Below, piece by piece: positions 1 through 20,000 of a DNA stretch of 20,000 nucleotides; position 1 is the first letter of the stretch; the number at the start of each line of letters is the position of its first letter. The DNA is taken from NCBI GenBank assembly GCA_031835245.2, contig JAVKOQ020000048.1, positions 236,066 through 256,065 of the forward strand, given 5' to 3'. Below the pieces are notes generated by a model, which saw only the letters and a list, made by a program, of their open reading frames with translations, was not told the origin of the DNA and made no database searches. The translations under genes and the position numbers were made by a program. The DNA is from Balamuthia mandrillaris. Lineage: Eukaryota.

Positions 1-2055
1 TTTCTGCAGAGTGCCTCGTGTTGTACGAAATTATTTGTCTGCCAATGTCATCAAACATCACAGAGCGGGACTCCAGATTGGTGAAGATGCCTTTTGGTCA
101 CATGAATATGAGTTAGCACAGTTGTTTTTATAGGCAGCCAGCAGAATCACAAAAAAAGTACTGCACGCCACGAGAATGCGAAGACGAAGACGAAGAAGAA
201 GAAGAAGAAGAAGAAGAAGAAGAAGAAGAAGAAGAAGAAGAAGAAGAAGAAGAAGAAGAAGAAGAAGAAGAAGAAGAAGAAGAAGAAGAAGAAGAACAGG
301 AGGAACAAGAACAGAAACAACATACTGGATTTGAGCTGATTTTTTGCTCGCGTGACTTCTTCCTCTTGCAAACGGTGGGCCATCTCGGCTAATTGCAAGC
401 ACATGACTTGAACCATATCTCCGAGGTGGGAATGGTCCGCTTTAGCGTAGATGCCAAACATCCCGGTATCTTCATAAAAGGTATTGAAGGCGCTGGCGGC
501 ATCAACGTAGTGAAATTGGTTGAGGACATTGCGGTAGAGGCGAGAGTACATGCCTTTGCCAGGGCCACCAGGACTGAAAGAGCTTCCACCACCCATTAAT
601 GTTTGCAGCACGCAAGCCCCATAGAGGTCCTCGTCTTGCAAGCTCACGCCCTCAAAGGCTAGAACCACGTGGCTGGGATAGGGCTTGTCCAGTTGAGACA
701 TGGCGTGCAGTTTGTCTTCCACTTCAGGAGTCATGACCTCCAGATGTTCACCTCCCTTGTAGATTGGGTGAGTAGGAGGACTCACCACCGGTGATGATGT
801 AGAGCTTTTTCTCACATCCGCAAAGTGCTTTTCTGCCATCCCCACAAATTGCGCATGTTCCACACCTACTGCAGCAACAACTACACGGGGACCCACATAA
901 AACCGCTCTACGAACTGCAAGAGGTGTTCTCGGGTGATGGCCGAGATGTTGCTTGGAGGTACTAATTGACTCAAGCCTAGGCCTTCCTTGCCGTAGGCTA
1001 GCTCGTGCAGAACCTCCGATATCCATGTATCTGGGTCATATTGTATCTCCTCTAATTTCTGGGCCAACACTTGTCTCTGTTCTTCCATGTCCTCTTCCAA
1101 GAATTGCGGCGACTTGATGTTGTTGGCAAGTATCTCCAACACCTCTGGTAGATGGTCTTGGATAGTATCCACCTGGTAGACCATCAGCTCTCTCATGCTT
1201 GATGAGAAAGCTCCTGTGCCAAGTTCTTCTAAGCGTTGCACTATGTGTTGTGTAGTGTTTGTGGCGGTAGCCTGGGATAAGACCCAACATTCGTTATACA
1301 GAAAGCACGAAACAGCCACCTTGCAATCAACCAAGAAACAAACACAACAATACCTAGATACAAACCTTGTAGGCCATTCGCTGAAGGAAGTCTGTAACAC
1401 CATTGGTAGCAGGGGTTTCATATCTGGATCCAGCATTCACAAAGACGCCGACGGTGCTGACCTGGCCGTAACATTCCTCGCTGGCAACGCGAAGGCCGTT
1501 AGGCATGGTAGTCACCCGTGTAACCGGCCGTTTGAGTGCAGAGAGAGGAAGCGGCTCTGGTGTTCCTGGGAACGGCTCACGCATTGAGACAGTGGGTTGC
1601 CGTTGCGAAGTGAGATTCTTCGACTCTTCTTGCAGCCTCTGTTTTTTTTCCGCCCTTCGCTTGGCAACAGCAGGATCCAAGGGTGGCGCTGCAAAGTATG
1701 TCACTGGGAGGTGCGGTGTTGCTGTCACTGGTTGGCTGTGCGGTTGCCGCAGCTCCTCCCTAAAGGTCATGCTGCCGCGGAACCAACGCCGAGACATGCC
1801 TGTGTCACAGGGGTCATTGTCATTGTAAGATGAGTGAAACGCTGTTTTTCTCTCACTCAACCACTGAAGAAACAAAGCAGTACCTGGAAGGAGGCCCCCC
1901 ACCCCTCCACCGTCGCCACGGGGACTCACCAAGGCAGAGCCGTGTTGGCTGAAGTGCCGCAAGGTCGGGTCCCAAGGAAGAAACCGTGCTCCCAGTAACC
2001 GATGAATGGTTGATGGTCGTGAAAGGTTTTGGCGAAGCCCTCTGATCCCCTCCAT
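1..2055 (-). CDS. PMPCA: Mitochondrial processing peptidase alpha subunit (M16 family, non-catalytic); 3' end lies beyond the window. Exons approx. 2055-1930, 1863-1366, 1271-326, 90-<1
   Basis: TRVTTMPNGLRVASE...VGVFVNAGSRYE; HxxEH replaced by DFLQR; alpha-specific glycine loop GGGSSFSPGGPGKGMYSRLY. GT-AG splicing of 325..91 restores QLKSS-IFTNLESRSVMFDDIGRQI. Arg-rich presequence-like N-terminus. The first intron (1929-1864, in frame) is less certain. Confidence 0.93.
192..296. repeat. (GAA)35 microsatellite in an intron of the MPP-alpha gene
   Basis: Pure GAA run read directly; it explains the spurious poly-F and poly-L ORF translations. Confidence 0.97.
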
Positions 2056-2228
2056 GTTGTTGTTGCTGCTGCTGCTGCTGCTGTTTTTTGTCGTTCTTTT
2101 TCCTTTTGCGATTTCTTCTTCTGTTCTCTCTCTCTCTCCCTCCCTGCCGCTCCCCTCTTAGTGCCAGGAAAAGAGAGGAGCACGAGGGGTAGAAAGGTGC
2201 CCACCCACTTTTTGGGGCAACACCCTTT

Positions 2229-2254
<26 letters not shown>
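2056..2254. repeat. Oppositely oriented triplet repeats in the short divergent intergenic region: (GTT)3(GCT)6 at 2056-2083 and (CAG)8 at 2231-2254
   Basis: Read directly; each tract reads as CAG on the sense strand of the gene it precedes. Confidence 0.85.
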
Positions 2255-2259
<5 letters not shown>

Positions 2260-2293
2260 CAACAGGACAAGAAGGAACAAGTACCACCCAACC

Positions 2294-3664
2294 ATGCTGG
2301 AGAGCGGCGAGCTGGCAACCTCCTCCTCTTCTGGTGGCGAGGTGCCCCAAACCCTGCAGGCCTATAACCGTCTTGTTGATTGCCACTTTTTTGTGGCGGG
2401 GGAACACGGCTGTTCCAAAGGCCAGGAGTGTGAGTTCAGGCACTCACAGGCGGCCAAAGACAACCCCAAAGTTTGCAAGTTCTGGTTGCAGGAGGATTGC
2501 CTCAACCCCGACTGCAAGTTCCGTCATCCTACCCTCCCTCGCCAGGTTTTTTCCTTCCCTTCCTTCTTCTCTTCCTTGGCTTGCTGCCGTGGTGCGCAGA
2601 GCTAACGAACGCTTCACTGGCAAACCACACAGAAAGATGGCAGCAGGACATTTTGCTACTACCAGTCAACAGGGCAGTGCACACGGCGTGCTGTCTGCGC
2701 ATTTTACCATGGGGATGAGCCTCCGGGCAAGCTGGTGTATGCTGCTTTGTTGCAGCCAGAGTCAGTCGAACTGCCAACCCAGCTGCCCTTACAAAGACAA
2801 TCAGCTCGAGGCGCAGCAGCAACACTGACTCCCTTGCCATCCACACAGAGCTCCTCCTCTTCCACGTCAACAACTCCAGCAGCAGAGAGCACGAACAATA
2901 ATCCCTCCAAGAAACGTAAATTTGTAAAGTCGCTAGAAGAGCTCTTACAAGAAAAAGGTGAAGCTCAAACCACTGCCCCCACTTCACCTTCACCGTCCCC
3001 CAAAGAGGATCGGAAGGGGAAGGCCAAAGCTGACACTGAAATAATGACCCAGAGCACTGCCAAAACCGAGGAGTCGCAATCCAACAAAAAGCCTAGACTC
3101 GCACAGCAACAGCGAGAACAAGCGGCTACTGGACAGAATGCTGCCTCCACTTCTGGTGGTGGCCGTAAAGCCGACGGGAGAGTTGCCCGTCGTGCCAAAT
3201 CGCCTGCTACAAATGGCGGCGGTACGCGCCCTTCCTTTGGTGTAAAGTCTTTGAACGAGATACTGAAGGAGAGGGATCAAACCAGCACGCCTTCCTCCGC
3301 TTCCTCTTCCTCTTCTTCATCTCTCCCTTCAAATAACCGGATAGCAGAAGCCTATTCGAAAGCAGATGAGACACGAAAGGGAGTTCCAAGGCCAGCACCC
3401 TCAGATCCAATATCACCTGATACATCAGAGCTCGCATTACCGTCGTCGACATCGAGTGCAGTGGAACGGAAAGGAATTGGTATTAGGGCAGAGCAGCAGC
3501 ACAAGGAAGAGAAAGATGAAAGTGTAGATATTGATGTGGATGTAGACTTGGAAGTGGACGTGGATGGAGTGGAGGTGGACGTGGATGGAGATATTGACGA
3601 CGCAGAGTTGCAAGAGATCCTTGGCGCTGATGTGACATCTAGCGGCGGTGGTGCTGATATGTAA
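2294..3664 (+). CDS. ZC3H11A-like protein with three N-terminal CCCH zinc fingers; exons 2294-2545 and 2633-3664
   Basis: Fingers CHFFVAGEHGCSKGQECEFRH, CKFWLQEDCLNPDCKFRH and, after a GT-AG intron (2546-2632, GCTAAC branch site), CYYQSTGQCTRRAVCAFYH, in frame with ORF 2735-3664. Repeated VKSL(E/N)E(L/I)L motifs resemble those of ZC3H11A. Acidic C-terminus. Confidence 0.8.
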
Positions 3665-4337
3665 CAGTGGCGATAGGACTCTTGCCAGGTTTTTCCAGAA
3701 AAAAAGTTTAAAATTACAGAGATCATCTTGGATGGTTGGTTATAGTCTGAACTTAAATTTTTATGATATATAATAGCCATGTACTACGTCCTTGAGTAAG
3801 TAGGTGAAGCGGCTGGCCAGTGGGCTAGTTGACCAGTTTAACCATGCGAATAATCACGCGGGTACGTGGAATTCTTGAGTTTGGGGAAAGGGGAGATAAA
3901 AAAATTCATTGCCATGAATTTTTGTCGACGAACATCTCCTCGCGAGAGATGAGAAGTTGGACAAGCAAATACCACATTCCACTAACCCCTGTCTCTTAGG
4001 GTAGGTCTTTTTGAAACGCATAGCCTCTGTGCGTTACAACTCTGCTATGAATGACTCCGCCTTGCGTCGTGCTCTCCTTTCGAACGACAACGACATTCTT
4101 CACGGTGGCCTGCTCCCTTGTTTTTGGGGGGGGTTCAAAGATAGAAAGTTGGGCCTGTCCATGGCAGCCTTGCTGACCAATGTCGCCCTTCAGAAGGGGA
4201 CTCCATCCTTGTACTTTCGACAACCATCCCACCAAAAAGTTTACTTAGTACTACTCTAGTGGTGACAATTGTCTTTCTGTTCACTTGAAAGTGTTCCTAC
4301 TAAACACCATAAACACATTGTTCGATGTGGCAGCCTT

Positions 4338-5167
4338 TTACGTCCTTTGCTTCTTCTTAGGGGAGCGGGATTCCTTGTGACGGTCATGGCCGTTATGTGA
4401 TGGTTGTTGAGGATGGTTGCTTTTGCTGACGGCGGCTGTTGTCGGCGCTAAAGAAGGGGAAGAAGGACGGCCCTTCCCTGGCTTTTTGCTGCTATTATTT
4501 TTTGCAAGGGCTTTGCGCTTGGTGGACGCACCGCTTTGTGGCTGATCACCTTGTTCGTTCTGGTCGCTGGGCCGAGTCTTCTCAGTGGAACTGGGTGCAC
4601 GAAGGGAGTGTCGTATGAACCTCTCAGCAGCCTCTTGGTTTAACCGGAGGTTGGGTTTGTAGTCCTCGTTGGTGGACTGGTCAACTGTTAGCCCACTGGC
4701 CAGCCGCTTGACCTTCTGGATGTAGCTCTTCACTCTGTCCTGGTGGAAAGGGGATACCCCCGAGTGTGAAAAAAACAAACACAAGAGGAGGGCAAACAAA
4801 AACAAAAACAAAAAAGAAAAGGGTTTTTGCTGAGCAAATGCCTGCCTCTTACCAATTCAGCTTTGACAGGGTGACCTTGTGGGCTCACCCCCTGAGTTTT
4901 TAAATAGACTGGTTGCAGGAGGTGGTGGTTAGTACGCAAGCGCGGAGCCAACAAAATAAAGGGGGCAGGTGCCCTACCATAGTACAGCGAGTTGAGGGTA
5001 TAGCTGAGCATGACGTGCAGCTTGGCCCTTTCAACTTCGGAGAGACCAGCGTGGACGTCCTCTTGCGTGGCTCTAAGAAACGAACCCACCAATTCCTGCA
5101 ATGTTTGTACAGTTTGCTCCAGCGCCTCAACCGTAGAGTACACTTCCAACGGAACCTCGTCTGCCAT
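4338..5167 (-). CDS. C1D: C1D/Rrp47 nuclear exosome cofactor (Sas10/Utp3/C1D domain); exons 5167-4978, 4908-4853, 4739-4338
   Basis: The spliced product reads ERAKLHVMLSYTLNSLYYVYLKTQGVSPQGHPVKAELDRVKSYIQKV...LRLNQEAAERFIRHSL with a basic tail. Both introns are GT-AG with consistent phases. Confidence 0.88.
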
Positions 5168-5224
5168 TCTGCCGAATATAGCTGCTTTGAGGTGCTTAGT
5201 TTCTTCCTTCGTTTTCTTTTCTCC

Positions 5225-5335
5225 CTGTCGACAATAAATTTACTCACGGGGCGCTTGATCTTTCTTGACAACGGTGCCGGCACCCAAGCAACCTTACCGC
5301 CTACCGCCCCCCGCCCCCTCAGAGAGGAGGAGGAG
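5225..5335 (-). ncRNA. Candidate omegaRNA scaffold/right end of the Fanzor element (tentative)
   Basis: Lies immediately 3' of the nuclease ORF. Pairable segments on the minus strand: CCTCCTC/GAGGGGG, GGGGCG/CGCCCC, GCTTGG/TCAAGC, plus the palindrome GGTGCCGGCACC. Boundaries not determined. Confidence 0.3.
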
Positions 5336-5339
5336 GTGG

Positions 5340-5965
5340 TGGTAAGTGCTTGCAACGTGAAAAAGCGGATCAAGATGTTTCGGGCGGCGTTGGCACTCGA
5401 TCGGCCTATTGGTAGCCACACTCGGGTTGAGGGCACCGAAAGGTCTTGTTTCCCCCCAACCGGTGGTGGACTTGGCCGCACTTGCCGCAGGTCTTGGAGG
5501 TGCATTCCTCATCGCAGAGGCAGACCGTACAGGACGGAAATTGCTTGGCCTTGTTGAGGAGCCTCTGCCTGAAGCGATAGTGAACCAGGTGAGCATGGCT
5601 CTGGCCGTTCGCGAGCCAATGCGGCGGTGGCCTCGCCGCACCATCTGCTGGCTCCTGAACTCTGGCAGAAGGATGAGGGAGAAGTTCCTGACCAACCAAG
5701 ACACAAGCTTCTTGTGGAGGTCCTCCACCAGGTTGCGGATCCTCTGGCGAAGCTGAGCAGCGGCCCTTCGGAGACGGCGCCGTTGCCTGTGGTTGCCCTT
5801 GGTGCCCTTACTCTGCATGCGATCCAGGCGGCGGCACAGCTTGCCTATCTCGTTGATGTCCGCTTTGCCCCACTCGGTGACCTCCCCGCAGCCGTTGTAG
5901 GTGGTCATGAATGTGCGCACTCCTGGATCCAAAGCGATGATGCCTGCCTCTCTCCTTCGGTGCTT
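5340..5965 (-). pseudogene. Fanzor2/IS607-type TnpB RuvC + zinc-ribbon fragment, 5'-truncated and frameshifted
   Basis: RuvC-I GIIALDPGVRTF; ILLPEF with P in place of the canonical E; shifted E in DEECTSKTCGKCG; second Zn pair CPQPEC; RuvC-III ADR[D]ANAARNIL. Lesions: 1-nt deletion at ~5583 (W[S]HYRF), TAG at 5406-5408, 1-nt deletion at ~5395 in the catalytic Asp codon. REC/WED half absent. Confidence 0.9.
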
Positions 5966-6301
5966 AAACTATTGGACTATTTTTTTCTAACCCTTCTTTT
6001 CTTTCTTTACACCATTCAAGGAAGCATCATTCCTACATTTATTTAACTACATTAGGATATGAGTGGCAATCCTCCTCCCCGCCACCTTGCCCTCACAGAC
6101 GTGGGAGAAGGAAGGGTTGTTTTGGCGGGAATCATGCTCATTGGCCCAAAAGACTAATTCGTGGTTTCTTTTTTTTGTGTCCTTAGATCTTATGATCTTG
6201 GCGCCGCCTGGATCCAGCACTTCACTGTCAAGTGTGAGAAGAGAGAAAGACCGAGAAGAAAGAAGCAGAGTACTGGTCCCCCCCCCCCCGTCCGCTGAAA
6301 G

Positions 6302-8759
6302 ATGGAAATCACCAAAGAGAACCTCCAGGCGCAACTTCCGTCCTTGGAAGAGGCGATAGAGCGCTGCGAGTTTTTGAGTTTTGACGGTGAAATGACGGGA
6401 ATCACGCTGGACTACAAAGAGGAACGCCTCCATGCATTGGACACAGTGGAGCAACGATATCAAAAGTTGTGTGCCTCTGCGCAAAACTTCCTCACAATAC
6501 AGTGGGGTCTTTGTGCGTTCATACCAGAGGGGGATGGGTAGGTAACACAGTTAAAAACTGGAACAACAACCAAACGGAGACTAAAGCTAGCTTCTTCCCA
6601 AAAGGTACAAAGCAGAGCCTTTTAACTTTTATCTTTTCCCAAAACCATTTCGCAAGGGAGCGGAGCAATATTTTCTGTCTCAAGTCTCTTCTATTCACTT
6701 TTTAGCCTCAAATGGCTTTGACTTTAACAAGCTGATATACCACGGTAAGCCCCTTGAAGAGACTTATCTTTGTTGCTTCCCAAGGTCACTCAAACAGTAA
6801 TACTTCTTCTTTGTTCCCTTGACAAGGTATCCCTTGGCTAACACGCGAGGAAGAAGAACGACAACGACCAAAACAGGAGCCCACTTCACCATTGCCTCCT
6901 AGTGATATTGTTTTAAACGAGAAAGATAAAGAGTTCCTGAAGCCAATTCATACTATGATAGAGGAATGGTTGCAATCCTCAACAGAGCAAGCTCTCCAGC
7001 TTGCTCCTTGCAACTCCTATCAACGGCGTTTGCTCTACCAAGAAATAGGAAAGCGGTAAAAGAAGTCGTCTATTCTGTTTCAGTTTCTGTTTACAAACCC
7101 GTTCTTCACTTAAAGCTTCGCTGACTTGTTACTACATTTTAATTTTGCCTCTGTCAGCTATAATAACCGTTTGCATGTGGAGGCTCACAGTGTTGAAAAC
7201 ACTCACCTTCGTAGCGTGAGTATCAGTCGCATGACGGAGGAAGAGAAAAGCCAACGGCAAAGGGAACAACTACAGCACTCAATGGTTTGTTTAGCCACAT
7301 GAAATCTATTCCTCTGCCTTAACCGTCATTCTCACAACTTGAAGGATGAGCTAGAGGAAGCAATTGGCTTTCGCAAAGTCTTGGAGATGCTCATCAGGCA
7401 TCACAAACCTCTTGTTGGGTATTTCTTCCTTATTGTTCCCTTCCCCAACGTTTTGTTTCTTGCTTTTGGTTTTTCCTGTATTGAATAGTTTTCTTTGCCA
7501 CTATGGAACAGGCATAATATGCTTCTTGATCTACTTCACCTCTTTTCCTTTATTTATCAACTGCCTTCAACTGTGTTTGATTTCAAGGCGAAGGCTACTG
7601 AGCTCTTTCCTTGGTATGTGCACATTCTACGAAGGGACACTAGGTCGTTTTTTTGTAGTTATTAATTGTTTCTCATGAAATATTTTTGACAGCATTCTGG
7701 ATACTAAGTACCTAGCTACTGCTTCTAACCATTTTAAAGTAAGAAGCACAGCCCCTTAAACCCTTAAATTCTGAAGCCTTCAGAATAATTCAATTTTTGT
7801 AATACATAGGATTTATTGCCTTCCACCTCATTGGAAGATTTATATCGAACCTTCAATAGTCTAGAGTATCAGTCCAAACCGACTGTTGAATTATCGGATA
7901 GGTGTGCTGAATTTAATACCTACAGCATTGACACATCTCGATTCCATGAAGCAGGCTTTGATGCCTTTATCACAGGATTATCTTATATTAGAATGCTGCA
8001 TAAAATAGGTAGACAGTTAATAATCCTTTTTTTTTGGTACTCATTAACATGAATGGATCAATAGCATTGGAAGAGAATTGGCAAAGTCCTTTTACTCCAG
8101 CTTCTGGTAGGGTTTAAGTATTGTCCATATCACTTCAATATTAACTCACCATTTCAATTTATAACATTGCAGGGTTATTAGATCAGTATGTCAACAAATT
8201 ATATTTAATGCGTTCTGATATCCCATATTTTCAGATGAATGGTCTTCAAGGTAACATTATTTTATTTTTCACCAATTTAGCTTTCTTTTCACATCAATCC
8301 ACAGAACCACCAGATAGATCCAATGTTTTTTATGTTTTTGGCTTTGATAGTGCATTACAGACAACAGACATTGTGAGACACTTTGAGGACTTCAGCAGAG
8401 TATTTGTTACCTGGCTGGATAGCACATCCTTATTAGTTGCTTTAGAAGATAAAGAACAAAGCCAGCAGGTTATACCACATTTTCAGACCCTTCCCAGTCC
8501 TCCTTTTCATATTCTTGATTATGACACCTATCAACACATGTTTGCTCAGCATTCTGCTAGCCACTCCTCTTTCATGTCTATAACTAATGAAGTGAAACAG
8601 CATTTAAACTACAAAAGAAAAAGAAACACATTGTCTACAAATGAAAAAACAGAATTTGCACAGCCAATAAGGAAAAAAGTAACTTCAAACATTAATGAAG
8701 AAAAGGAAGAAGGAGAAATTGTTGAAGAACAACAACATAATGATGTTAAAGAAAAATAA
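6302..8759 (+). CDS. PARN: Poly(A)-specific ribonuclease (DEDD/CAF1 nuclease + R3H + RRM), multi-exon; first exons 6302-6537, 6605-6744, 6827-7055
   Basis: Motifs in the expected order across GT-AG introns: MEITKENL...FLSFDGEMTGI, PFNFYLFP, SSIHFLASNGFDFNKLIYHGIPWL, R3H CNSYQRRLLYQEI, GHNMLLDL, DTKYLA, HEAGFDAFITG, RRM PPDRSNVFYVFGF. Confidence 0.93.
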
Positions 8760-11599
8760 ACAAAATACCTTTAATATTCAGTCTCAATACCTATCTTTTT
8801 CTTTCTTCTTTTCTATTTTTTACATCACTTCAAAAGATTGATGGAATATAAAAAATAGTTTTGAATACAACATGGTCTAAACTTATAATATTTTAAAAAA
8901 ATGATTTATAATAATTAAAAAACCTATAAATAAAATAAAAAATAACCCTAATTAACTTTACTTTTTTCTATTACCGTGCACAATCAAGTTTTTCCAAATT
9001 TCTGGGTTTATCCGTATTTTCTCACACAGAACAAGTGGGAAAAAAAGTATTTTGGAAAAACTTGAAAGTGCTGGGTAATATTCCTTAAACTCTATTTTTT
9101 ATTTATTTTATAATATACTACTTTATTATAAGGGAAAAAAAACAAATATATTTTATAATTAATTACTTTTTTTAAGGGAGCATACTTGTTTTTGTCCCAT
9201 AATTCGAGGGTATTTTGTTTTGCCCTCTTTCTGCACAAAAAAAGCATTACATCAAAAAAAAAAAAAAAAACAAAAAACAAAAAACAAAGAACCTCTTCAA
9301 AACAAAAAAGGGTGTTCCTTTTTGGAAATTATTTTTGATAAATAATGAATAAACATTTTTCTATTGAATATAAAACATTTGAAATTAATTTTGTTCATAG
9401 TTATTGACAATCAAATATCTGTAATGGAAATAAAAAAATGAAAAAATTAAGGAAAAAAAAAACAGAAAAAAGAAACTATTATACTTGAGTAGAAATAGTA
9501 AATTCTAGCAAAGTTAAAAAAACGTTTATGAAGCTTGATCTAATAGAAAAACAAAAAAGTGACCAAACCAAAGTGTATTTTAAATGAAAAAAAGAAAACA
9601 ATAAAGAATCTTTAGTGTTGCTTAAAAAACACTTTATAGCTTTATGAAGTTGGTAACAGGTTAGATCAACCAGGTATTATCCCTTTTGATAACATTTGTG
9701 TATACATAACACTGAGTTGGGCCAAAATACCTGTTTTTATAACATTGCCTAGAAAGCAATTTGTAAAACCTTCAAATATAATACTACCAGTGTAGTTCTT
9801 TACAAAAGCAGTTTTTCACTGGGATGTTGGCCAGAATCAGAAGTCCTGGTCTGTGTTGTACTAGCTGATAGGACAAGGACCTGTCCTGAGAGAGCAAAAG
9901 GCCTGAGTCTCCAAGGGCCTTGCTAACAGGAAGGAGAGGGTAGGAAGAGGCTAGTCAAGGCCTTGTTGATAGCTACCAGGAGATAAGCAGTGACTTACAT
10001 TTTTTTTAAGTGCAGTGATCTCCTGGTCATGGACAGGGAAAACTAGTAAATGCCTGAGATGTGGAAAAGAATATGGCAAGAGCACAAAAACGAGAGAAAG
10101 AGAGAGAGAGAGAAAGAAAAAAGAGAAAGAGAAGAGAAGAGAGAATAAGAGAGAAAAGAAAGAGAAAATAACACAAACTATAAAAAGAATGAGGAGTGCT
10201 GGTTCTATCATCAGCGCCATAGCCATGAAGCCACTGATGAATGTCATCAGGAAAAAATAAAGGATTGGCAGGTCGCTACATGCTTCCATTGATAAGTGGG
10301 CCTGTTGGATTTTTGTTGACATAAGCAAAAGAAAAAAACATGCTTCAGTTGTCTGCTGTCCACTGCAAATTTCAAGTTAGTGAGGTGATCTTTTTCTGCA
10401 AGCTATATATGTGCACTTTCGTTTATCTTCAAGCTGCACACATGTGTGCACTTCTAATACTTTTTTTTTTCATCAGTCTGTACATATGTGCTCATGTTGA
10501 TCATTGTCTTTTCCCATCTTTTTGTTTTTCTTCTTTCTTCTAATAAATCATTTTCTTTCAATCTGTACCTACAAAGAGAGATGATTAAGCAACCATTCTA
10601 CACCATTATATAGTCTCTTTTATCACTATCATCAACTATGATGATAGTTTTTCTGTGTAGGTCTTTGCTTGCTTACTGGCCAAGTAGTAGTAGTAATAAG
10701 AAGTTTATTTGCTCTAAGAGCAACACCTGTCTATATAAAAAGTAAGCATTGTACATACATAGTACTGGCCAAGTATTTTTTTGTAATCCTTTCAAAAATT
10801 TTTCTTTATATGGCTGAGATCATGCACCACCTTCACTGAACTAAGCCTTGGATCTTCTTGTTGTTGGGAGATGTTAGAAAGGGAATAGGACCAAGAAAAA
10901 AGACAACAGAGTGATGAGAGCCCAATGTAATTTAATGCATAAAAAGAAAAAAGTGTGTGAGTGTGTGTATATTTGTCCTCTTGTTTTGTGAACTGCAACC
11001 TTAGTGAGGAAAATGAAAGAAGAACCCAATTTATAGTTAGGAAGGGAACCTTAAGAGCCAGAGATTGAGGGTTCGTCAGTAAAATTGCCAATTCTCAATT
11101 TCTGAACTTGAAGAAACTTCACAGGAAATGACCAGGAACAACAAGTTGATCTTTGGTGTCAAAAAGATTAATTAACAGAGTGATATCAGTTGTCAGCAGA
11201 AAAAGATCAAGGAGAAAGAAGGAAGAAGGGAGGAGAAAAGAGTTGATTATGTTGGCAGTTGCCCACAGAGATATAAACCCTGCAAATCAAGAAAGGATGG
11301 CATGTAGGTGACTCTTCCTTTTGTTTATTTTCCCCTTCTCTTTGTTTAAAAGCTCATTCAACACCTTTCACTTGTAAACAAAAAACAATTAGGAAGGCAT
11401 TGAGGATAAGTGAGTAAGAAATTTTCCTCTTTTCTTGCAACATATTCAAAGCACACACTTTGGTTCACCCAAAGATGACTGTAACATGTTTGACAAAGAT
11501 CTGTGTGTTAAGCTTCCTCTCAACATTGCTCAAGATTGCTGAAGGCATCCACAATACACTCCAACACAACCAGCAAGTGCCTCATGGTCCCAGCAGTAC

Positions 11600-12330
11600 T
11601 CTTCCAGAGAGTGTTATCTACCTTAATGCTGGTGATGCTAAACCTGTTTTTCATAAGCAATATACCATTCCTCACGTGTATCATAGCCCTCTCTTCACTG
11701 TTCGCTCCTTTAGCAACTGAATTTCACTGTAGACATGGAGTTGTCAACCAAAGCAAAATCACATCCCTTCTTTCTCTGAACAAAAACGCCTCCTGCAGCT
11801 GTTTCACACAAAAGGACATCATGGAGCAGAAACCTTGTTCATCAAGATCTGAAATAAAGGCTATTATGGCCTACTTTCCATGCTGACTGTTCTCACACTT
11901 GCCTGCAACAACTGCCTTAAGCATAACATTACCAAACACAGCTTTCATCCCCTGAAAACTATCCATGCTACTTACTCCTTCATCACAACATCACCATCAA
12001 TCTGTTTGGCCCACTTCCCACTTCCTCCAAAGGCTTCAACTATGTTCTGATTACCACAGACATTGCTACCTGGTTCACTTTTCTCTTCCCAGTCCACGTC
12101 AAGACTTCCAAAGATGTGACCTCTACTTTCTATCACTTTGTCTCTGATTTTGGTCTTCCTAAGATCCTTCAGTAAGACAATGAGCACTGAGTTTGTCAAC
12201 ACAGTCATCAAAGCTCTTGACCCACTCTCTGGCTTTGAGCACCAATTCATCTTGGCCTATCATCCTGAAGCTGACAGAGCTGCAAAAAGCCACGGTAAGC
12301 TGGCCTGCAACACTCTTGATATACATTGTG
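11600..12330 (+). mobile_element. Degenerate Ty3/Gypsy-type pol relic (pre-RT segment plus integrase Zn/core), internally deleted
   Basis: VIYLNAGDAKPVFHKQYTIP (pre-RT motif); CNNCLKHNITKHSFHPLKTI; LFGPLPTSSKGFNYVLITTDIATWFTFL; LPKILQ*DN..TEFVNTVIKAL; AYHPEADRAAK. Spread over several frames with stops. Confidence 0.8.
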
Positions 12331-12899
12331 AACAAAATTGCAAACTGCCTCAAGTATTTTATGCTCAACAGTGGTCTTAGCTCAAAGGCAACAACACACC
12401 AAGCCTGAAAAGGTCAAAGAAGGCAAAAAGAGCCTCTTTTTTGACAGTACACCTCATGTAACAGACACCCCCTACTGTGTAGCTGGTCTATCATTTATAG
12501 AGCACCCATTACTTCTCCAGACTCTGTTTTCCTCTAAGATTCCAACTGGTCTACTTGCTCACAACCCTGAATGTGATGGCCACCTGGAATCCTTTTGTTG
12601 GCAACTGGAGAACAACTAGCATTCCAACTTGTGGAATATGGCCCTAGCAAAGTACACACATGTAAAACTACTTCCAGTGGAACAATATAGTTGTACCTTG
12701 CTATGGTATCAGGCCAGAGATTTCTACACCGCCCACTTCAGCAGTAATGCAGAACTTCAGACTTGTCTCTATGACGACTTCTTCAAGCTGAATGTTCTTA
12801 TTTCACAACAAAGCAAAGTGTTATTACAATAAACTAAACAGTGAATTCATTGTTGTTAACCATTGTAATGATAAGTGTTGGTGATTTTTACCATAATGC

Positions 12900-13120
12900 T
12901 CCTTCTCTTAACACTATTATCAGACTTGCCAACAAGACATTGGAGGAAGAAGCAAAGAAATACCTTGATTCCTCAGATGAGGAGCTTGTCTTAGGCAGTG
13001 ATGGAGTATGGAGTCAACAAAGAAATGCCAGCTTGATTGGCTGCAAGAGATGGACTTACTCTCCTAAGTGACAATGTTTGTCTATGACCAAGACTCCTCA
13101 GTGCTAAAAATACTGCAAGG
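12900..13120 (+). mobile_element. Probable Mutator-like DDE transposase relic
   Basis: LVLGSDGVWSQQRNAS resembles the DGxWxxR first-Asp motif. MFVYDQDSSVLKIL follows in another frame (from 13074) and resembles the DGDSS second-Asp motif. The intervening sequence appears deleted. Confidence 0.5.
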
Positions 13121-13839
13121 TCTATTCATACATAAAAGCAAATAATAAAATGGTGTATACAGCTTTTATAAAGTCAGTGAAAGTTGAAGAAGCCAACACA
13201 GCTGCCAAAGAAGATGATAGAGGTTTGTAGGGAAAAGCTCTCATTGTTAGAAACAAAAAGTTCCATATAAGAGCTAGGAAGAGCAGAAGATTTCTTGTGA
13301 AAAGAACATAGCTTCTTGTGTCATCAACCAGAAGAATGTTAGAAAGGGTGAATAACATAAACAGACAGGGTCAAAACGTATTATTCAAAGAGGGAACAAG
13401 GAACAAATGGTGTCAAGAGAGAAAGGTGGGATATGAATGAAACAAAACTAATTAACTAAAAGAAAGAAAAAAGGAAGCAACAGAATAAAAGAAAGAAGTC
13501 TGGCCAATACTTTTGGAACCTGTTGACTGACATAGCAAAAGTCAACTTATTTTAGCTATTCATTAAAAACATATATCCATAAATTTAAATGTCTATTTCT
13601 TAATCTTGGTCATTTATAAAGACATACTGCAAAATTTTATGTTGGATTTTTTGTGTTGCTAAAGACATAATTCACTAATGTCTAGAAAACAAAAAAGGAG
13701 ATTCTCCTTTTAGAAAGTTGAAAAGGCAAAAGATATTTTTTTTTCTCTGAATTTTATTATTTTTATAAAAAGCAAAATCATTTAACCAAAAAGAACAAAT
13801 AATTAATTATTATTATCTTTTTAACCAAAGTTAATTTGC

Positions 13840-14090
13840 TCACACACTGGGCTCTCATGATTCTCCATTATGACTTCAAAGTTTTCCACTAGCCTGGAAT
13901 TCACCATATCCTAAAGGACTCCCTTTCACAGTGTACCCACTTAACAAATATTAACAAATCTTGGAGCAACTTCACTTCAGCCAAAACAAAGGTGCTGAAA
14001 GCCTTCTTCATAAAGTTCTCAAGGAAGGTTACAGTTAACTTGTGGAAGATTTCTTCCCTGGATTTGTTTTAACCACTAGTTCATCTTTTC
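13840..14090 (+). mobile_element. Second Ty3/Gypsy relic (RNase H C-terminus and start of integrase)
   Basis: HWALMILHYDFKVFH*PGIHHILKDSLSQ matches the RWal.l..ydF.i.hrpG..n..aDaLSR consensus. It is followed by QILEQLHFSQNKGAESLLHKVLKEGY, which resembles the integrase Zn-finger His region. Confidence 0.7.
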
Positions 14091-14307
14091 AGATTACCTA
14101 TGAGCCAACATAATTTTTTTTTCAAATTTTATTAATAAGGAAAATCATAAATTATTTTTTATATGAATGGAATAGTATTTTATAATATTAAAGAAAACAT
14201 TTTTATTATTGTTATTTGAAAGTTGATATTTCAAAAACAGAATTTAATTGTCTAATTTGTCTTTTCCTTTATCTTTTTTTGATTTAGTTGATTGAGAAGA
14301 TGTGTTG

Positions 14308-17300
14308 CTATAAAAATCTGAAAAATCCTAAATCACTATTATTATTGTTCTTTTTACTTTCTGTATCTTCTTGTTCTTCTTCTTCTCTTTCTTCTTCTTC
14401 TTCTTCTTTTTCTTCTTCTTCTTCTACTTCTTTACTTTTATCTTTTTCATTTTGTTGTGCTTTTGATTTTTTGTGGTTTTTGGAGGTAAGCTTTGGAAGT
14501 TCTTCATCTTCCTCTTCAGATTGATTATTATCTTTTGGAACTTCATCATCTTCATCATCTGCATTTTTTGGTACTAAATCTTCTTTCAGAACTTTTTGTT
14601 TTTTCTTCCAAGCAACTAAGCCTTTTTGCACCTTGTTTCTATCCAACACAGTGGTTGCTAATAATTTTGCATGCTCTGCTAAGTTTGTGGCTCCAGAACC
14701 AGGAAACAAGGCCACAAAATGACGCATTGCTAACATTTATAAATGTTTTAGTTCATTACCAAAAGAAACAAGGAAAGGAAAAACAAAAGGATGAACTTAC
14801 TTTCCAAACAAACAGGCAAACAACCTGTTGTGGGATTAAAGGCCAACACCACATCTTTAGGCTCTGTGAATGTGTTCAGCAAATAACGATACACATTTAA
14901 AGGAGGAACAGGAGAAGAAGAGAGATTCGCCTGATCAGCCACTTGTCCTTCCTGAGCTTGAGGTCCCTTGATTGGAATCACCACTGAAGTTGGTTGCCAT
15001 GTCTCCAAGGCCAACAGAGAAGAAGTAATCGAACTAGAATCATCCTGCAACTGTGTTTGGCCTTTGTTCCACACTGCCACAAAGATGCCATTCTCACACC
15101 ATTGTGGTTTGTTGTTATGGTTGGAATGGTGAGGTTTGTACCCAAAAACAAGAACTGTTTCTAGCTTCAAGTTAATCAAAAGCTGACGTTGCTTTTGTTT
15201 ATAGGCATTGATTTGATTCATGGCCAAGTGCAAGTGATTATAACGGGTAGTTATCAACAAAACCCTTTCCACATGATGATCTGGGAAGAATGAGAGAAAA
15301 TTAGACAGACAGCAATCTGAGTTCTTTGGAAAAAATAACCCAAAAAAGACTTACTTTGGCAGTGTACTCCCAAGGAATCAAGCATCAAGGGAGCATGTGT
15401 TGGTAAATTATCATAAATGATCACTTTGAACTTGGTAGGAGGGGAATGAGAAGCAAGCACGTCCTTTCCCCATTTGTTGAGTTGGTGGGCCAATTGTTTG
15501 GAGGGTTGAGGAGGAGTGTTGAGTTTGGGTCTGCCACGATGATGGTTTTTTGCTTTTTTGGCCTGGTGTTTGGAAGAGGTCTTTGGTTGTTGTTTTTTGC
15601 TTTTTCTTTTTTTTTTCCTTTCAATATCATGAGATGGTTTTGGTGAAGGAGGTGGAGAGGGTTGAGGTGTAGTGGTGTTTGAGTGGAATGGAGGAGAAGC
15701 TGGTTCATCGGAGGGTATGTGTTGCTAGCAGCAAGGAATGAATAAATGAATGAAAGATAGCAAAAGGAAATGTTAACTAAACTTCAATGCCATAGAAATC
15801 AATACACTTTAGAAAAGGCATACTTGAATTGCCTGGTGAAAAGCAGTATCTCCAGATAAGCCTTGTTTCTCAAAGAACTCTTCATCATACTCGCCACTGT
15901 TCACCTGATCTTGGACTTCCTCCAAGTGGGCTAAAGGAATCTCTTTTTCAGTATGATACAATTCCAGTTCTTCATGCATAGCTTTTCGACCAATGTGTTT
16001 CCACATCTGCATGTATGCACGTTTCATGAGGAAAAGTAGTAGTGACAAGATAGAGAAAGAAAAGATTGCAATGCAGCTTACCAATCTTTTGAAGTTGGTT
16101 ACAGAACATTCTTCCTTGGGATCCTCGAGGTGCCTTGCCCATATCTCTTTCAAGGCTGCCAACAAGGTTTCATCTGATAAGGAGCTTGGCATTTTCTCTC
16201 TGAAGTGGTAAGGAGTAAACACCCAGCCCCCCTTCTCTTTGTCCTTCTCCTGAATATAACTCCAAGACTCTGGGAATTTCTGCATTTTGTTTGCCACTGT
16301 TTTCAAACGTCAAACACGATCAAAGGTAAGAGCATTATGGGCATCTTGGGAGGCAGTTTTTGAATTCTAAAATACAAAACCCACCCAACACAAAAGAGAA
16401 AAAATGAGCAATCATTTTAGAAAGCTTGCCTGCAACCAAAGAAGGCCTACCAGATAATGGAACAGCTCCTCTGGTGTTTTCGTGAGATGATTGTACACAA
16501 AACGGACCATATCCCATTCTGTCTCTTGATTGACTCCTTCGAACAACACCAGGTTGTCCCAGGCAGACAACTTCCAAGAAATATAAGTAAGTCACCTTGT
16601 TAAAAAACAGAAAAAGCAACAGAAAACTCCAAGGTATTGTACCTTGTCCAAGACAGCCACACTTGGAAGTTGTTTGCCATCAAATGGCAGCACTTTGGCC
16701 CTCCAAGTTAACTCCTTCAGCTTTGGGGAGTTTTCACAGTACAATACGTGGGCTGCTGCACATCGATGGTTACCTCCAAGACATACATATTCTTGTTGAT
16801 TGCTTTCTGGATGCACCCACAGAGCTGAAGGCAGTTCCATCAATAATAAAGAAGAGCGTTCATCAAAAGACAAAATGCCGCCTGAGTTGAATGTGGCCAG
16901 CAGCTTGTTCAACCCCTCTGGTTTTAGAGGTTGATGCCAACCTGATAAAACAAACGAAGTTAATGACAGTACAAAGTTAAAAGAAGGCATGAAAAACTGT
17001 GGAGGGTATTCGCTGCACCATATGGCGCAGCCAATGCCCTTCAACTAGTCAACAAGAGAGAAAAAGGCCAAAGGCATGAGCTGTGCCGTACGGCGCAGCC
17101 TATAACCTTTTCTTGCCAGCCAAACAAGAAATTAAGGCAGCAGTTGTGATCTGCGCCATATGGCGCAATCATTACCCGAACTATAAAAGGAAAGTGTTGA
17201 TCTGAAGGGCAGATCTGCGCCATATGGCGCAGCCAACACCCTTCCTTCAAAAATACCAGAGGATTTGAAGGGCTGAACTGTGCCGTCCGGCGCAGCAAAT

Positions 17301-17924
17301 GAGCTGAAGGGCTGATCTGCGCTGTACGGCACAGTCAACACCATCCCTTCAAATAATAATTTGGATGAGAGAAGAGAAAGGGCAAAAGTAGGATGGAGCT
17401 GGACTGGCCCTTCTCCCTTGAGGAAGAAAGAAGCAAGGCGAATAGTGGCCGTTCAGCTGTTGACTATAACACAAAAATAAAAGCACAAACCTTTCATAGT
17501 GATAGCTTTCAACGGAACCAAACGAGTCCCCTCCTGAAGCCGAGTTTTACAAAGTTCTGCCACCTCTTTGGTTTCCTTGTCTGCGCCATCCGGTGCACAA
17601 AATAGACGCACAGCTTCCAAGTCGCTCTCGCGCAAAATCCAATCATTTCTTGTTGGAGTGCTATCATAAAAAACCTCAATCACTCACCAGAAAAACCAAA
17701 ATGGAGAGCAAGTTGTTTTACCTGTTGGATGGGGAGGAAGATGAGCCTTCATCTGTTTCCGAGAGGTCCAATGGTTGGTTGGAAGAAGGATTCAACGTAG
17801 GAGTTTGTAGCATTTGCAATTTGTGCGACAAGACAGATTTGGAGTCCTTGGTGGTCCATTGTCCACTGAGGTCATCGATCCTTTGCCGCAGTTCTTTCAC
17901 TGTCAATCTCTTGTTGTCCGACAT
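14308..17924 (-). pseudogene. Nine-exon gene: SAP/HeH-like + ParB/Sulfiredoxin-like + AT-hook + degenerate beta-class N4C/N6A DNA methyltransferase-like domain + acidic tail; mildly decayed
   Basis: Exons 17924-17722, 17660-17491, 16941-16643, ~16580-16451, 16366-16082, 16006-15824, 15724-15355, 15280-14801, 14729-14308. Seven of eight introns are GT-AG with matching phase; the exon 4 acceptor is unresolved. Motifs: LTVKELRQRIDDL..TKDSKSVLSHKL; RLVPLKAI..YVCLGGNHRCAAAHVL; HRGRPK; FKVIIYDNLP; PPLNVYRYLLNTFTEPKDVVLAFNPTTGCLPVCLETMRHFVAL. In-frame TGA at 16312-16310. Confidence 0.75.
17013..17334. repeat. Cluster of six 18-bp palindromes separated by largely unrelated spacers, inside intron 2 of the ParB-like gene
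   Basis: Copies start at 17013, 17081, 17151, 17215 (perfect CTGCGCCATATGGCGCAG), 17278 and 17317; spacers 50, 52, 46, 45 and 21 nt. Confidence 0.9.
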
Positions 17925-18361
17925 AACCACAACAGCAAAAATAAAAAGCAAGGAATATGTGTGAACGGTGTGAATGGTTGTGCACTTTTGTGACAAACTA
18001 AAATTTTGGGAGTTTGTTTTGCTTTTGGCCCTCTTTTTTTTCTTTCAAATTTCGTTTAATTGGTAGTCAAATCGTTGTGGTTTGCTGCAGACTTTGTGGA
18101 GGGCAACCAATGACAGAGAGCATCGCTGATATGGTGCTGGAAGAAGTGACAGCAAGTTGAAGGAAATTCAAAAGCGTTTTGTTCCCATGATTCTTTCTTT
18201 TGAGTTCAACTTGTGAAAGGACTGTGAGGCATAACGGTTTGTATTGTTCTCAGTTGTCAAATCTGTTCAGCCTGCATTTTGTTTGAAAGAGAGACCAGCA
18301 TTGCTATGCCATTATCCCTTTTTCTTTTGTTTTTTTGCTTGCATTCAATTTTCGAGACTAG

Positions 18362-18940
18362 CGCGTTGGCTGCACCATACAGCGCAGATCAGCCCTTTCC
18401 CACTCTCTTTTCTTTTGTATGGCTGGCATTGGCTATGCCGTGCAGCGCAGATCAGCCCTCTTCTGCTTTCTTTTCTTTTGTATGGCAGGCATGGGCTGTG
18501 CTGTACGGTGCAGATCAGCCCTTTTCTGCTCTCTTTTCTTTTGTATGGCAGGCATGGGCTGTGCTGTACAGCGCAGATCAGCCCTTTTCTGCTCTCTTTT
18601 CTTTTGTATGGCAGGCATGGGCTGCACTATATGGCGCAGATCAGCCCTTTTACTCAATTTTTTTCTTTTGTTTGGCAGGCATTGGCTGCGCCATATAGTG
18701 CAGATCAGCCCTTTCCAGCTCTCTTTTCTTTTGTATGAGAGGCATGGGCTGCGCCATACGGCACAGATCAGCCTTTTTCCGCAATTTTTTCTTTGATAGG
18801 CAGGCATGAGCTGCACCATACGGTGCAGATCAGCCCTTTTCTGCTCTCTTTTCTTTTGTATGGCTGGCATTGGCTACGCCATACAGTGCAGATCAGCCCT
18901 CTTCAGCTTTCTCTACTGTTGTATGAAAGGCATTGGCTAT
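18362..18940. repeat. Tandem array of ~9 x 63-bp units, each carrying the same 18-bp palindrome
   Basis: CAGATCAGCC recurs at 18385, 18448, 18511, 18574, 18637, 18701, 18764, 18826 and 18889 (period 62-64). Unit consensus is approx. GGCAGGCATGGG-CTGCGCCRTAYGGCGCAG-ATCAGCCCTTTTCTGCTCTCTTTTCTTTTGTAT. Confidence 0.96.
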
Positions 18941-19224
18941 CCTTCCTATCCAATGAAAAGCAAATTTTTTCAAATTTTTCTAGCAAGCAAGAATGTTGAG
19001 TGTGTCATATGATGCAAAAGCGCCCTTTCCTTTCAACAAAGAATTTAGCAACCTTCATTGTGAAGGGCAGATCTTGTGTCATACAGCACAGCCAATACCC
19101 TCTTATACCCTTTTGATTATTTATCTATTCTGCCACCATTTTTTTTCTTGTAAAGTGTTGATTCTTCTGCCTGACTTATGAGGTTTCTTTAGATAGGACA
19201 TCATTGCAGTAGAAAAAGAGCACC

Positions 19225-20000
19225 ATGGCCTTCCAACCACCATCCAAACTGAAAAGCACTGCACGTCGGTTTTTTTCAGAGTAACATATCCAGACTTCAA
19301 AGCACAGTTACTGCTGTCAACAATACTGTCTTTCCAGCATTTCATCAGAGGATTTCAAGAGATGCGCACCTATTATTGGACACTGGACTCAGAACAAGCC
19401 AGAACCAAATTTCTTGGGGATTGCTTGCTTTTTTCTTATGGTCCTTATCAAGAGACCAGAGCTGTCAGGCCCTCCAAGCAACGATTGCTTTTGGCTGGTC
19501 ATCTGGTTTGTTACAAAGCAATCCAATTATGGCTGGCCCTTTCCAATAAGAAGTTTTATGCCTGCATGGACTTGTGGAAAACGGGAGTCACTTTACCTCT
19601 TCATCGCAATCATGGCCTGGTTTGGCACTTCACCACCTATTTGCAAACCAAAGCCTGGCTTACAGTGTACTTTGCCAATATGGGAGAATCCTTGCCAAAC
19701 TCTGAAGTCATTCAGATTCCAATGATATTGAATCGAAAAGCCTTGTATCAAGAAATGGTATTAAGCCTGGGACATGATCAAAGCATCAGTTATGCACGCT
19801 TTTTGCAAATGTTGCATGAAGATTTCTCTTATGTTCATTTTTTCCAAGGTAAGCTTTGTTTGTTGAGAGAGTTTGTCAAAAGAAAGGAATGATTCATTGT
19901 TTTTATTCTAACAACCTGTTGATGAATAATTGTTATTGCTTTCTGTATTAGCAAACCAGATTAGGAAAATGTGATCAATGTGCTCAGCTTCTAGTTCGTT
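19225..20000 (+). pseudogene. N-terminal part of a Sola-like (DUF7869-type) DNA transposase, decayed; continues beyond the window
   Basis: ATG at 19225 in CACCATGG context; TAA at 19282; CCQQYCL..FKRC[frameshift ~19365]RTYYWTLDSEQARTKFL; VCYKAIQLWLALS; IQIPMILNRKALYQEM..ISYARFLQML..FSYVHF; intron 19849-19951; QTRLGKCDQC. The splice phase needs one fewer T in the run at 19838-19843. The catalytic core is not in the window. Confidence 0.6.

Follow-up and report, generated by a model that had tools for sequence, protein, structure and literature searches.

Here we describe a stretch of 20,000 nucleotides from Balamuthia mandrillaris (contig JAVKOQ020000048.1 of assembly GCA_031835245.2, positions 236,066 to 256,065), referred to as the window, in which two genes lie back to back, with starts at 17924 on the minus strand and at 19225 on the plus strand, 1.3 kb apart. 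They are likely to belong to a Sola-like cut-and-paste transposon, now a decayed multicopy element. The plus-strand gene would encode its transposase, and the minus-strand gene, called the passenger here, is predicted to combine ParB-like and N4/N6 methylase domains in one protein. The two genes are accompanied by 17 copies of one 18-bp palindrome. The features are the following:

14244..17924, minus strand: passenger gene, nine exons (splice model, public gene models and tblastn)
17924-17722, 17660-17491 and 16941-16643, minus strand: passenger exons 1 to 3
16570-16451, 16366-16082 and 16006-15824, minus strand: passenger exons 4 to 6
15724-15355, 15280-14801 and 14729-14308, minus strand: passenger exons 7 to 9
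16451..16941, minus strand: predicted ParB N-terminal (ParB/Srx) fold in exons 3 and 4, with a GxxR motif (GGNHR) and a later D-N pair
14560..15499, minus strand: predicted N6/N4-methyltransferase-like fold in exons 7 to 9, followed by an acidic low-complexity tail
17013..17334: array A, six palindromes (17013, 17081, 17151, 17215, 17278 and 17317) within the 549-bp intron 2 of the passenger gene
17581..17598: lone degenerate palindrome in coding exon 2, with two CpG-type and two other mismatches
18368..18938: array B, a 63-bp unit repeated 9.1 times in tandem, with one palindrome per unit, between both start codons
19074..19091: lone degenerate palindrome about 130 bp upstream of the transposase start
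19225..20000, plus strand: 5′ part of the transposase gene, DUF7869 (PF25273), Sola-like DDD; the catalytic part lies beyond the window

Read from the ATG at 17924, which agrees with the public gene models P0003, P0011 and P0014, the passenger has GT-AG introns and 843 codons in frame, with one internal TGA (codon 283). Its stop at 14308 comes after a frameshift near 14325 that makes the tail shorter than in other copies; the relatives continue to about 14244, and one copy, P0016, is fused to a reverse transcriptase (RT) RNase H domain at the passenger 3′ end. The transposase gene carries frameshifts near 19352 and 19838, which other copies do not have, and tblastn places an intron after about 19848 and the start of the following exon at about 19952. 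Neither gene is intact in this copy; the N-terminal half of the passenger is naturally uninterrupted. The original prediction for this DNA, made from the letters alone, had placed a spliced gene with the ParB motif GGNHR at 17924 and a transposase-like gene at 19225, and both hold: the former as a nine-exon model with GGNHR in exon 3, in agreement with public gene models, and the latter with an ATG shared with P0001, P0002 and P0010.

The domain content of the passenger is drawn from predicted structures. In a structure search of the ESM Atlas, residues 70-265 of P0014 match ParB_N clusters (template modelling, TM, scores of 0.50-0.59), and residues 415-625 of P0004 match N6_N4_Mtase and MT-A70 clusters (0.56-0.59). 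Two of the clusters matched by the methylase fold also carry ParB_N, and clusters with both PF02195 and PF01555 are included. The earlier proposal of a eukaryotic DNA transposon is supported, and these predicted folds support the ParB-methyltransferase-like passenger proposed with it. The GxxR motif of exon 3 reads GGNHR in five of six models and GGNHQ in one. About 300 residues separate the two domains, and the 95 residues that follow the ParB core are predicted to form six helices (predicted local distance difference test, pLDDT, 73.7); no solved helix-turn-helix clearly resembled this helical region, for which Foldseek had no match at E 0.001 and the highest VIA Z, 5.8, belonged to unrelated chains. 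Neither sequence searches of the PDB nor the phage tblastn gave anything significant, and an AlphaFold2 model of P0004 alone reached a pLDDT of 34, so that a fold search from it is meaningless. Residues 7-37 have what we take to be a SAP-like look, with no SAP match in Pfam, PHROGs or NCBIfam. A profile search of 1.84 billion representatives retrieved seven proteins, all of them close copies of the passenger.

Among the Atlas feature neighbours of P0014 residues 70-265 (window 16451-17660), the nearest, at 0.94-0.95, are a fungal cluster, 31% of whose members carry DUF3723, and unnamed clusters from cnidarians and molluscs. This offers a lead that DUF3723 may be ParB-like and the passenger family widespread; no paper joining DUF3723 with ParB was found in the literature.

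The methylase motifs were placed by eye against the usual consensus, (D/S/N)PP(Y/F/W) or DPPY for the catalytic position and FxGxG for the S-adenosylmethionine (SAM)-binding one. The former reads DNLP in all six models and the latter AFNPTT or AFNSTT in the four models that reach it. Thus, the catalytic and SAM-binding motifs of an active N6/N4 DNA methyltransferase (PF01555) look degenerate in every copy read and, since these residues replace the expected ones, the methylase domain is probably inactive. This suggests that it may be retained as a non-catalytic module.

On the transposase side, the homologues P0001 and P0002 are 96% and 89% identical, both with PF25273, and full-length relatives carry DUF7869 (E 2e-42 and 5e-44), a domain on which no paper was found in the literature. 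The relatives show the motifs IxMDY, QADNCxKENKN and GHTHEDVD, and a CxxC upstream of the three acidic motifs. By eye, this layout parallels the Sola2 alignment in the supplement (file 2) of PMC3627910; the third motif is unlike the SHGK of Sola2, and the element is therefore called Sola-like without a subgroup. Background on Sola elements is given elsewhere (PMC5751038, PMC4455052, PMC3985635, PMC3627910, bioRxiv 10.1101/2021.09.26.461848). No transposase relative was found in viral contigs.

The right end of the element falls outside the window, and its left side meets retroelement-like debris near 14110. Neither a terminal inverted repeat (TIR) nor a target-site duplication (TSD) was found within the window. 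An inverted pair, 17002-17043 with 19061-19102, was considered as a TIR and rejected: it consists of two copies of the repeat unit, without a flanking duplication. The debris, which abuts the passenger 3′ side at 11400-14110, appears by eye as decayed retroelement-like sequence with integrase-like and RT-like fragments and an end at 14101-14110 resembling a long terminal repeat; Pfam gave no match for three of its fragments.

The element is dispersed in multiple copies, with pieces of the passenger on nine distinct contigs and of the transposase on six, and the stretch is present in DNA from four studies, with no RNA data set listed as carrying it. All named homologues of either gene are from Balamuthia mandrillaris. 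Passenger and transposase occur together on four of the six transposase contigs, one of which is apparently this locus; in the three others, the accession numbers of the two proteins are consecutive (two copies) or three apart (one copy). This count covers annotated proteins, with contigs matched by their length, the opposite-strand arrangement being read in this window alone. The expectation that the two genes would co-occur in other copies between shared ends is thus borne out as to the linkage, in three further copies, and not as to the ends, which the window does not show.

With at most three mismatches allowed, the 18-bp palindrome matched the window 11 times and the 200 shuffles not once. 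When CpG decay plus at most two other mismatches were allowed, 17 copies were found, all inside 17013-19091; positions 1-16900 held none, against a mean of 0.02 and a maximum of 1 in 100 shuffles. The original prediction of about 18 copies with none elsewhere was a fair count. It had also seen them surrounding both starts, and here the picture is different: intron 2 of the minus-strand gene contains six and its exon 2 one, and the remaining ten fall between the starts, nine of them in the 63-bp tandem array and one at 19074, with none found beyond 19225 in the window. The arrays are central and bracket the passenger start. Array A, about 2.8 kb inward from the 3′ end of the passenger gene, is therefore not a subterminal repeat. 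The units of array B run inverted relative to those of array A.

The consensus, a perfect palindrome with four CpGs per site, forms the core of a longer, roughly 38-bp unit whose outer arms are imperfect. The core is better preserved than its flanks: two of 60 non-CpG core positions in array A are off consensus, and between array A and the majority unit of array B 45 of 120 near-flank and 98 of 144 far-flank positions differ. Across 16960-17620, 24 of the 40 listed differences in other copies fall inside the array A palindromes, 23 of these 24 at CpG positions, and the differences among copies are mainly transitions. The CpG observed/expected ratio is 0.64 over host genes (1-7900) and drops to 0.10 over repeat debris (9000-14100); the passenger gene body has 0.21 and the transposase 0.29, a pattern consistent with host CpG methylation directed at repeats.

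There are signs of expression. In contigs from run X7, whose run type is presumed, exon 2 is joined to exon 3, one base shorter than modelled, and a GT..AG skip occurs at 17417-17490; the other three runs compared have neither. Some copy is therefore probably transcribed and spliced. The skip is a second one, of 74 nucleotides, from the exon-2 donor into intron 2, and through it array A would enter an RNA.

Taken together, we hold with moderate confidence that the passenger binds the palindromes and regulates the shared promoter region of its element, probably to counter CpG silencing by the host, the methylase fold being non-catalytic. This reading, the likeliest, rests on the ParB fold encoded in the neighbouring gene and on the red-algal precedent considered below; in it, the folds are predicted, and binding, dimer formation and the use of nucleoside triphosphate (NTP) are inferred. 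A dimer of the passenger would load at the symmetric palindromes, perhaps gated by NTP as in bacterial ParB, and would spread over the promoter region, keeping expression on against host CpG methylation. The methylase domain, predicted to lack the usual motifs, may act as a DNA-binding or methylation-sensing module and not as an enzyme. If the host methylated the four CpGs of each site, the passenger would no longer bind, and decay of the copy would follow. With a defined 18-bp candidate site carrying four CpGs, few close copies and an uninterrupted N-terminal half, the proposal is directly testable.

Several observations weigh against this reading. Of the CpG sites in the palindromes 42 of 68 are gone, and 44 of the 53 mismatches to the consensus are CpG changed to TpG or CpA; any shielding from host CpG silencing, as had been proposed, has therefore failed in the present copies, and could have operated while the element was active. 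The palindrome occurs with unlike flanks in several contigs (loose ends at 17150, 17158, 17195 and 17212) and is therefore not restricted to the exact layout seen here. Furthermore, in one diverged contig from run X2 exons 2 and 3 are at most about 51 letters apart, which leaves no space for array A. In two raw RNA runs, 4 and 8 reads were placed, of 12.9 million records each, and the element family is probably transcribed weakly at best. No partner was found, among the annotated proteins searched, for five of nine passenger contigs and two of six transposase contigs. As for the protein, the Atlas models are of modest confidence (whole-protein pLDDT 0.61 and 0.42), the methylase feature score of 0.81 is a lead only, and the passenger matches no ParB, methylase, helix-turn-helix or SAP family in Pfam, PHROGs or NCBIfam.

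Among the other explanations, one takes the palindromes as internal sites of the transposase, for autoregulation or as an internal synapsis enhancer, with the ParB-methylase gene having another role. Array B and the copy at 19074 lie directly upstream of the transposase start, as it would have them, and DDE transposases often bind repeated motifs in their own elements. However, such sites are usually at or near the ends, whereas these are central, with 7 of the 17 inside the passenger gene, and the arrays of red algae are reported beside the ParB gene (bioRxiv 10.1101/2025.02.11.637652). We consider this explanation unlikely.

The arrays could also be neutral or separate from the two genes: a minisatellite or tiny hairpin element amplified within the transposon, or a hairpin that acts at the RNA level, in the intron or 5′ untranslated region. 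Array B is a simple 63-bp tandem repeat, 15 of the 17 units have the same orientation relative to transcription, the exon-2 copy is without matching flanks, and the diverged copy that cannot accommodate array A points the same way, as do the occurrences of the motif with other flanks. The unit folds as a hairpin in five of five units (z -2.0 to -4.2), which adds little, because any palindrome folds so. What speaks against neutrality is the core, preserved while the flanks diverge between the arrays; as to a structured RNA, the five Rfam matches are all far below gathering scores, with no family at threshold. On balance, we find neutral or RNA-level repeats doubtful.

It seems improbable that a host transcription factor is recruited by the palindromes and that these serve as the element's enhancer for both genes. 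A dimeric, methylation-sensitive factor would suit both the symmetric, CpG-rich core and the placement around a divergent promoter region, but no palindrome lies near the host genes in 1-16900, and 18 bp is long for the sites of most eukaryotic factors. Finally, it is very improbable that the passenger marks its own sites as an active N4-C or N6-A methyltransferase, or tethers excised copies in the manner of plasmid partition: its fold does match N6/N4 methylases, ParB-fused ones included, and self-modification is proposed for the Ectocarpus protein (PMC12477816), but the by-eye reading of DNLP in six of six models and AFNPTT or AFNSTT in four of four argues against activity, none of the 16 reading frames scanned in the window looked ParA-like, and nothing was found in support of the tethering that had been suggested.

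The putative binding of its own palindromes by the passenger can be carried further, to a whole bacterial parS/ParB switch in the nucleus: an NTP-gated sliding clamp would load at its own 18-bp sites and spread over the bidirectional promoter, the dead methylase domain would read CpG methylation, and the whole would constitute a sequence-specific anti-silencing device common to Sola-like elements of amoebae, algae and probably animals and mosses. We regard this extension as tentative and, as a whole, rather unlikely. If the ParB part were indeed an NTP-gated clamp, it would represent a DNA-sliding ParB in a eukaryotic nucleus. In this regard, orphan ParB folds may bind CTP, ATP, GTP or none, and sulfiredoxin is named as the commonest eukaryotic ParB-fold protein (bioRxiv 10.1101/2025.10.10.680097).

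Outside the window, the exact 18-mer occurs in 71 metagenome stretches, 67 of them with a single site and one with two; the median guanine-plus-cytosine content of the 71 is 0.64. They were set aside as relatives, there being no tblastn match to either gene. Three animal-like contigs (L020:739-924, L058:159-260 and L071:2715-2904) hold four to six overlapping degenerate sites in a different, CpG-rich short-period repeat; by eye, these repeats resemble transposon ends, with no link to the passenger or the transposase.

The rest of the window contains host genes, namely an M16 peptidase at 150-2157 on the minus strand and a CAF1-family ribonuclease with an RNA-binding domain at 6302-8759 on the plus strand. 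Among them, at 5297-5968 on the minus strand, lies a reading frame with a match to OrfB_IS605 (TnpB/Fanzor-like; E 2e-6, under the curated cut-off). A small inverted repeat at 8969-9080, situated in an AT-rich spacer, is similar to miniature inverted-repeat transposable elements, with 35-nucleotide arms, 83% complementary and 42 nucleotides apart.

The anti-silencing proteins of VANDAL elements, by analogy the closest functional model for the passenger, form a protein family unrelated to it and belong to Mutator-like elements. In eudicots, they bind motifs of their own elements and counter host methylation (cited in bioRxiv 10.1101/2025.02.11.637652); their activity has been demonstrated, whereas an anti-silencing role of the passenger is putative.

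With the bacterial ParB-parS systems, the locus shares a predicted ParB_N fold with GxxR and clustered palindromic sites near the gene, and it differs from them in that no ParA was seen in the window and in that the 18-bp site lies in a eukaryotic transposon. The ParB-N6N4 methyltransferase fusions of phages and bacteria are prokaryotic genes enriched in prophages (bioRxiv 10.1101/2025.10.10.680097; PMC4738411). They have both folds in the same order as the passenger, although the passenger gene is spliced, its two domains are some 300 residues apart, and its catalytic motifs appear degenerate.

The nearest cases come from algae, and they show that the design is not the new system that the original prediction had announced, because both the gene pair, in Ectocarpus, and a ParB gene beside repeat arrays, in the Plavaka elements of Bostrychia, have already been described. 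Sola1-1_Ec32 of Ectocarpus spans 21.5 kb, with a 282-bp imperfect TIR and a 4-bp TSD, and has on the opposite strand a gene for a 1104-aa protein with ParB-like and N4-C/N6-A methyltransferase domains (PMC12477816). It is alike in its Sola-type transposon and in its second gene. Compared by description, it differs in that the host is a brown alga and the protein has 1104 aa, whereas here the host is an amoebozoan and the protein, of about 843 aa, has methylase motifs that look degenerate. Its authors suggest that there is a class of accessory proteins which bind the transposon encoding them and modify it, and they also cite a 2011 chapter for green algal cases; the terms 'palindrom' and 'subterminal' do not occur in the main text (PMC12477816).

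In Bostrychia and other red algae, the ParB-like Plavaka accessory gene PAG3 stands beside tandem inverted-repeat arrays, and it is proposed to bind its own element, a comparison with parS being drawn (bioRxiv 10.1101/2025.02.11.637652). ParB accessory genes are found beside such arrays across Plavaka families. What PAG3 has in common with the passenger is a ParB-like product, a DNA transposon as carrier and repeat arrays next to the gene. In PAG3, however, ParB is fused to a 2-oxoglutarate (2OG) oxygenase, the methylase being separate (PAG2, with SET) and the transposase of Plavaka/EnSpm type, whereas here ParB and the predicted methylase fold are in one protein and the array is partly intronic.

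Two 2025 algal genome papers thus propose that ParB-bearing accessory proteins bind their own transposons and modify them, with no binding test in the parts of them that were available (PMC12477816; bioRxiv 10.1101/2025.02.11.637652). No such element described in an amoebozoan was found in the literature, in a search that reached few subscription papers and no Repbase. As far as the searches show, the amoebozoan host, the defined site, the partly intronic arrays and the probably dead methylase are new here. So is the union of a predicted ParB-methylase fusion and palindrome arrays in one element. The general design has already been published for algae, and this locus extends it to Amoebozoa.

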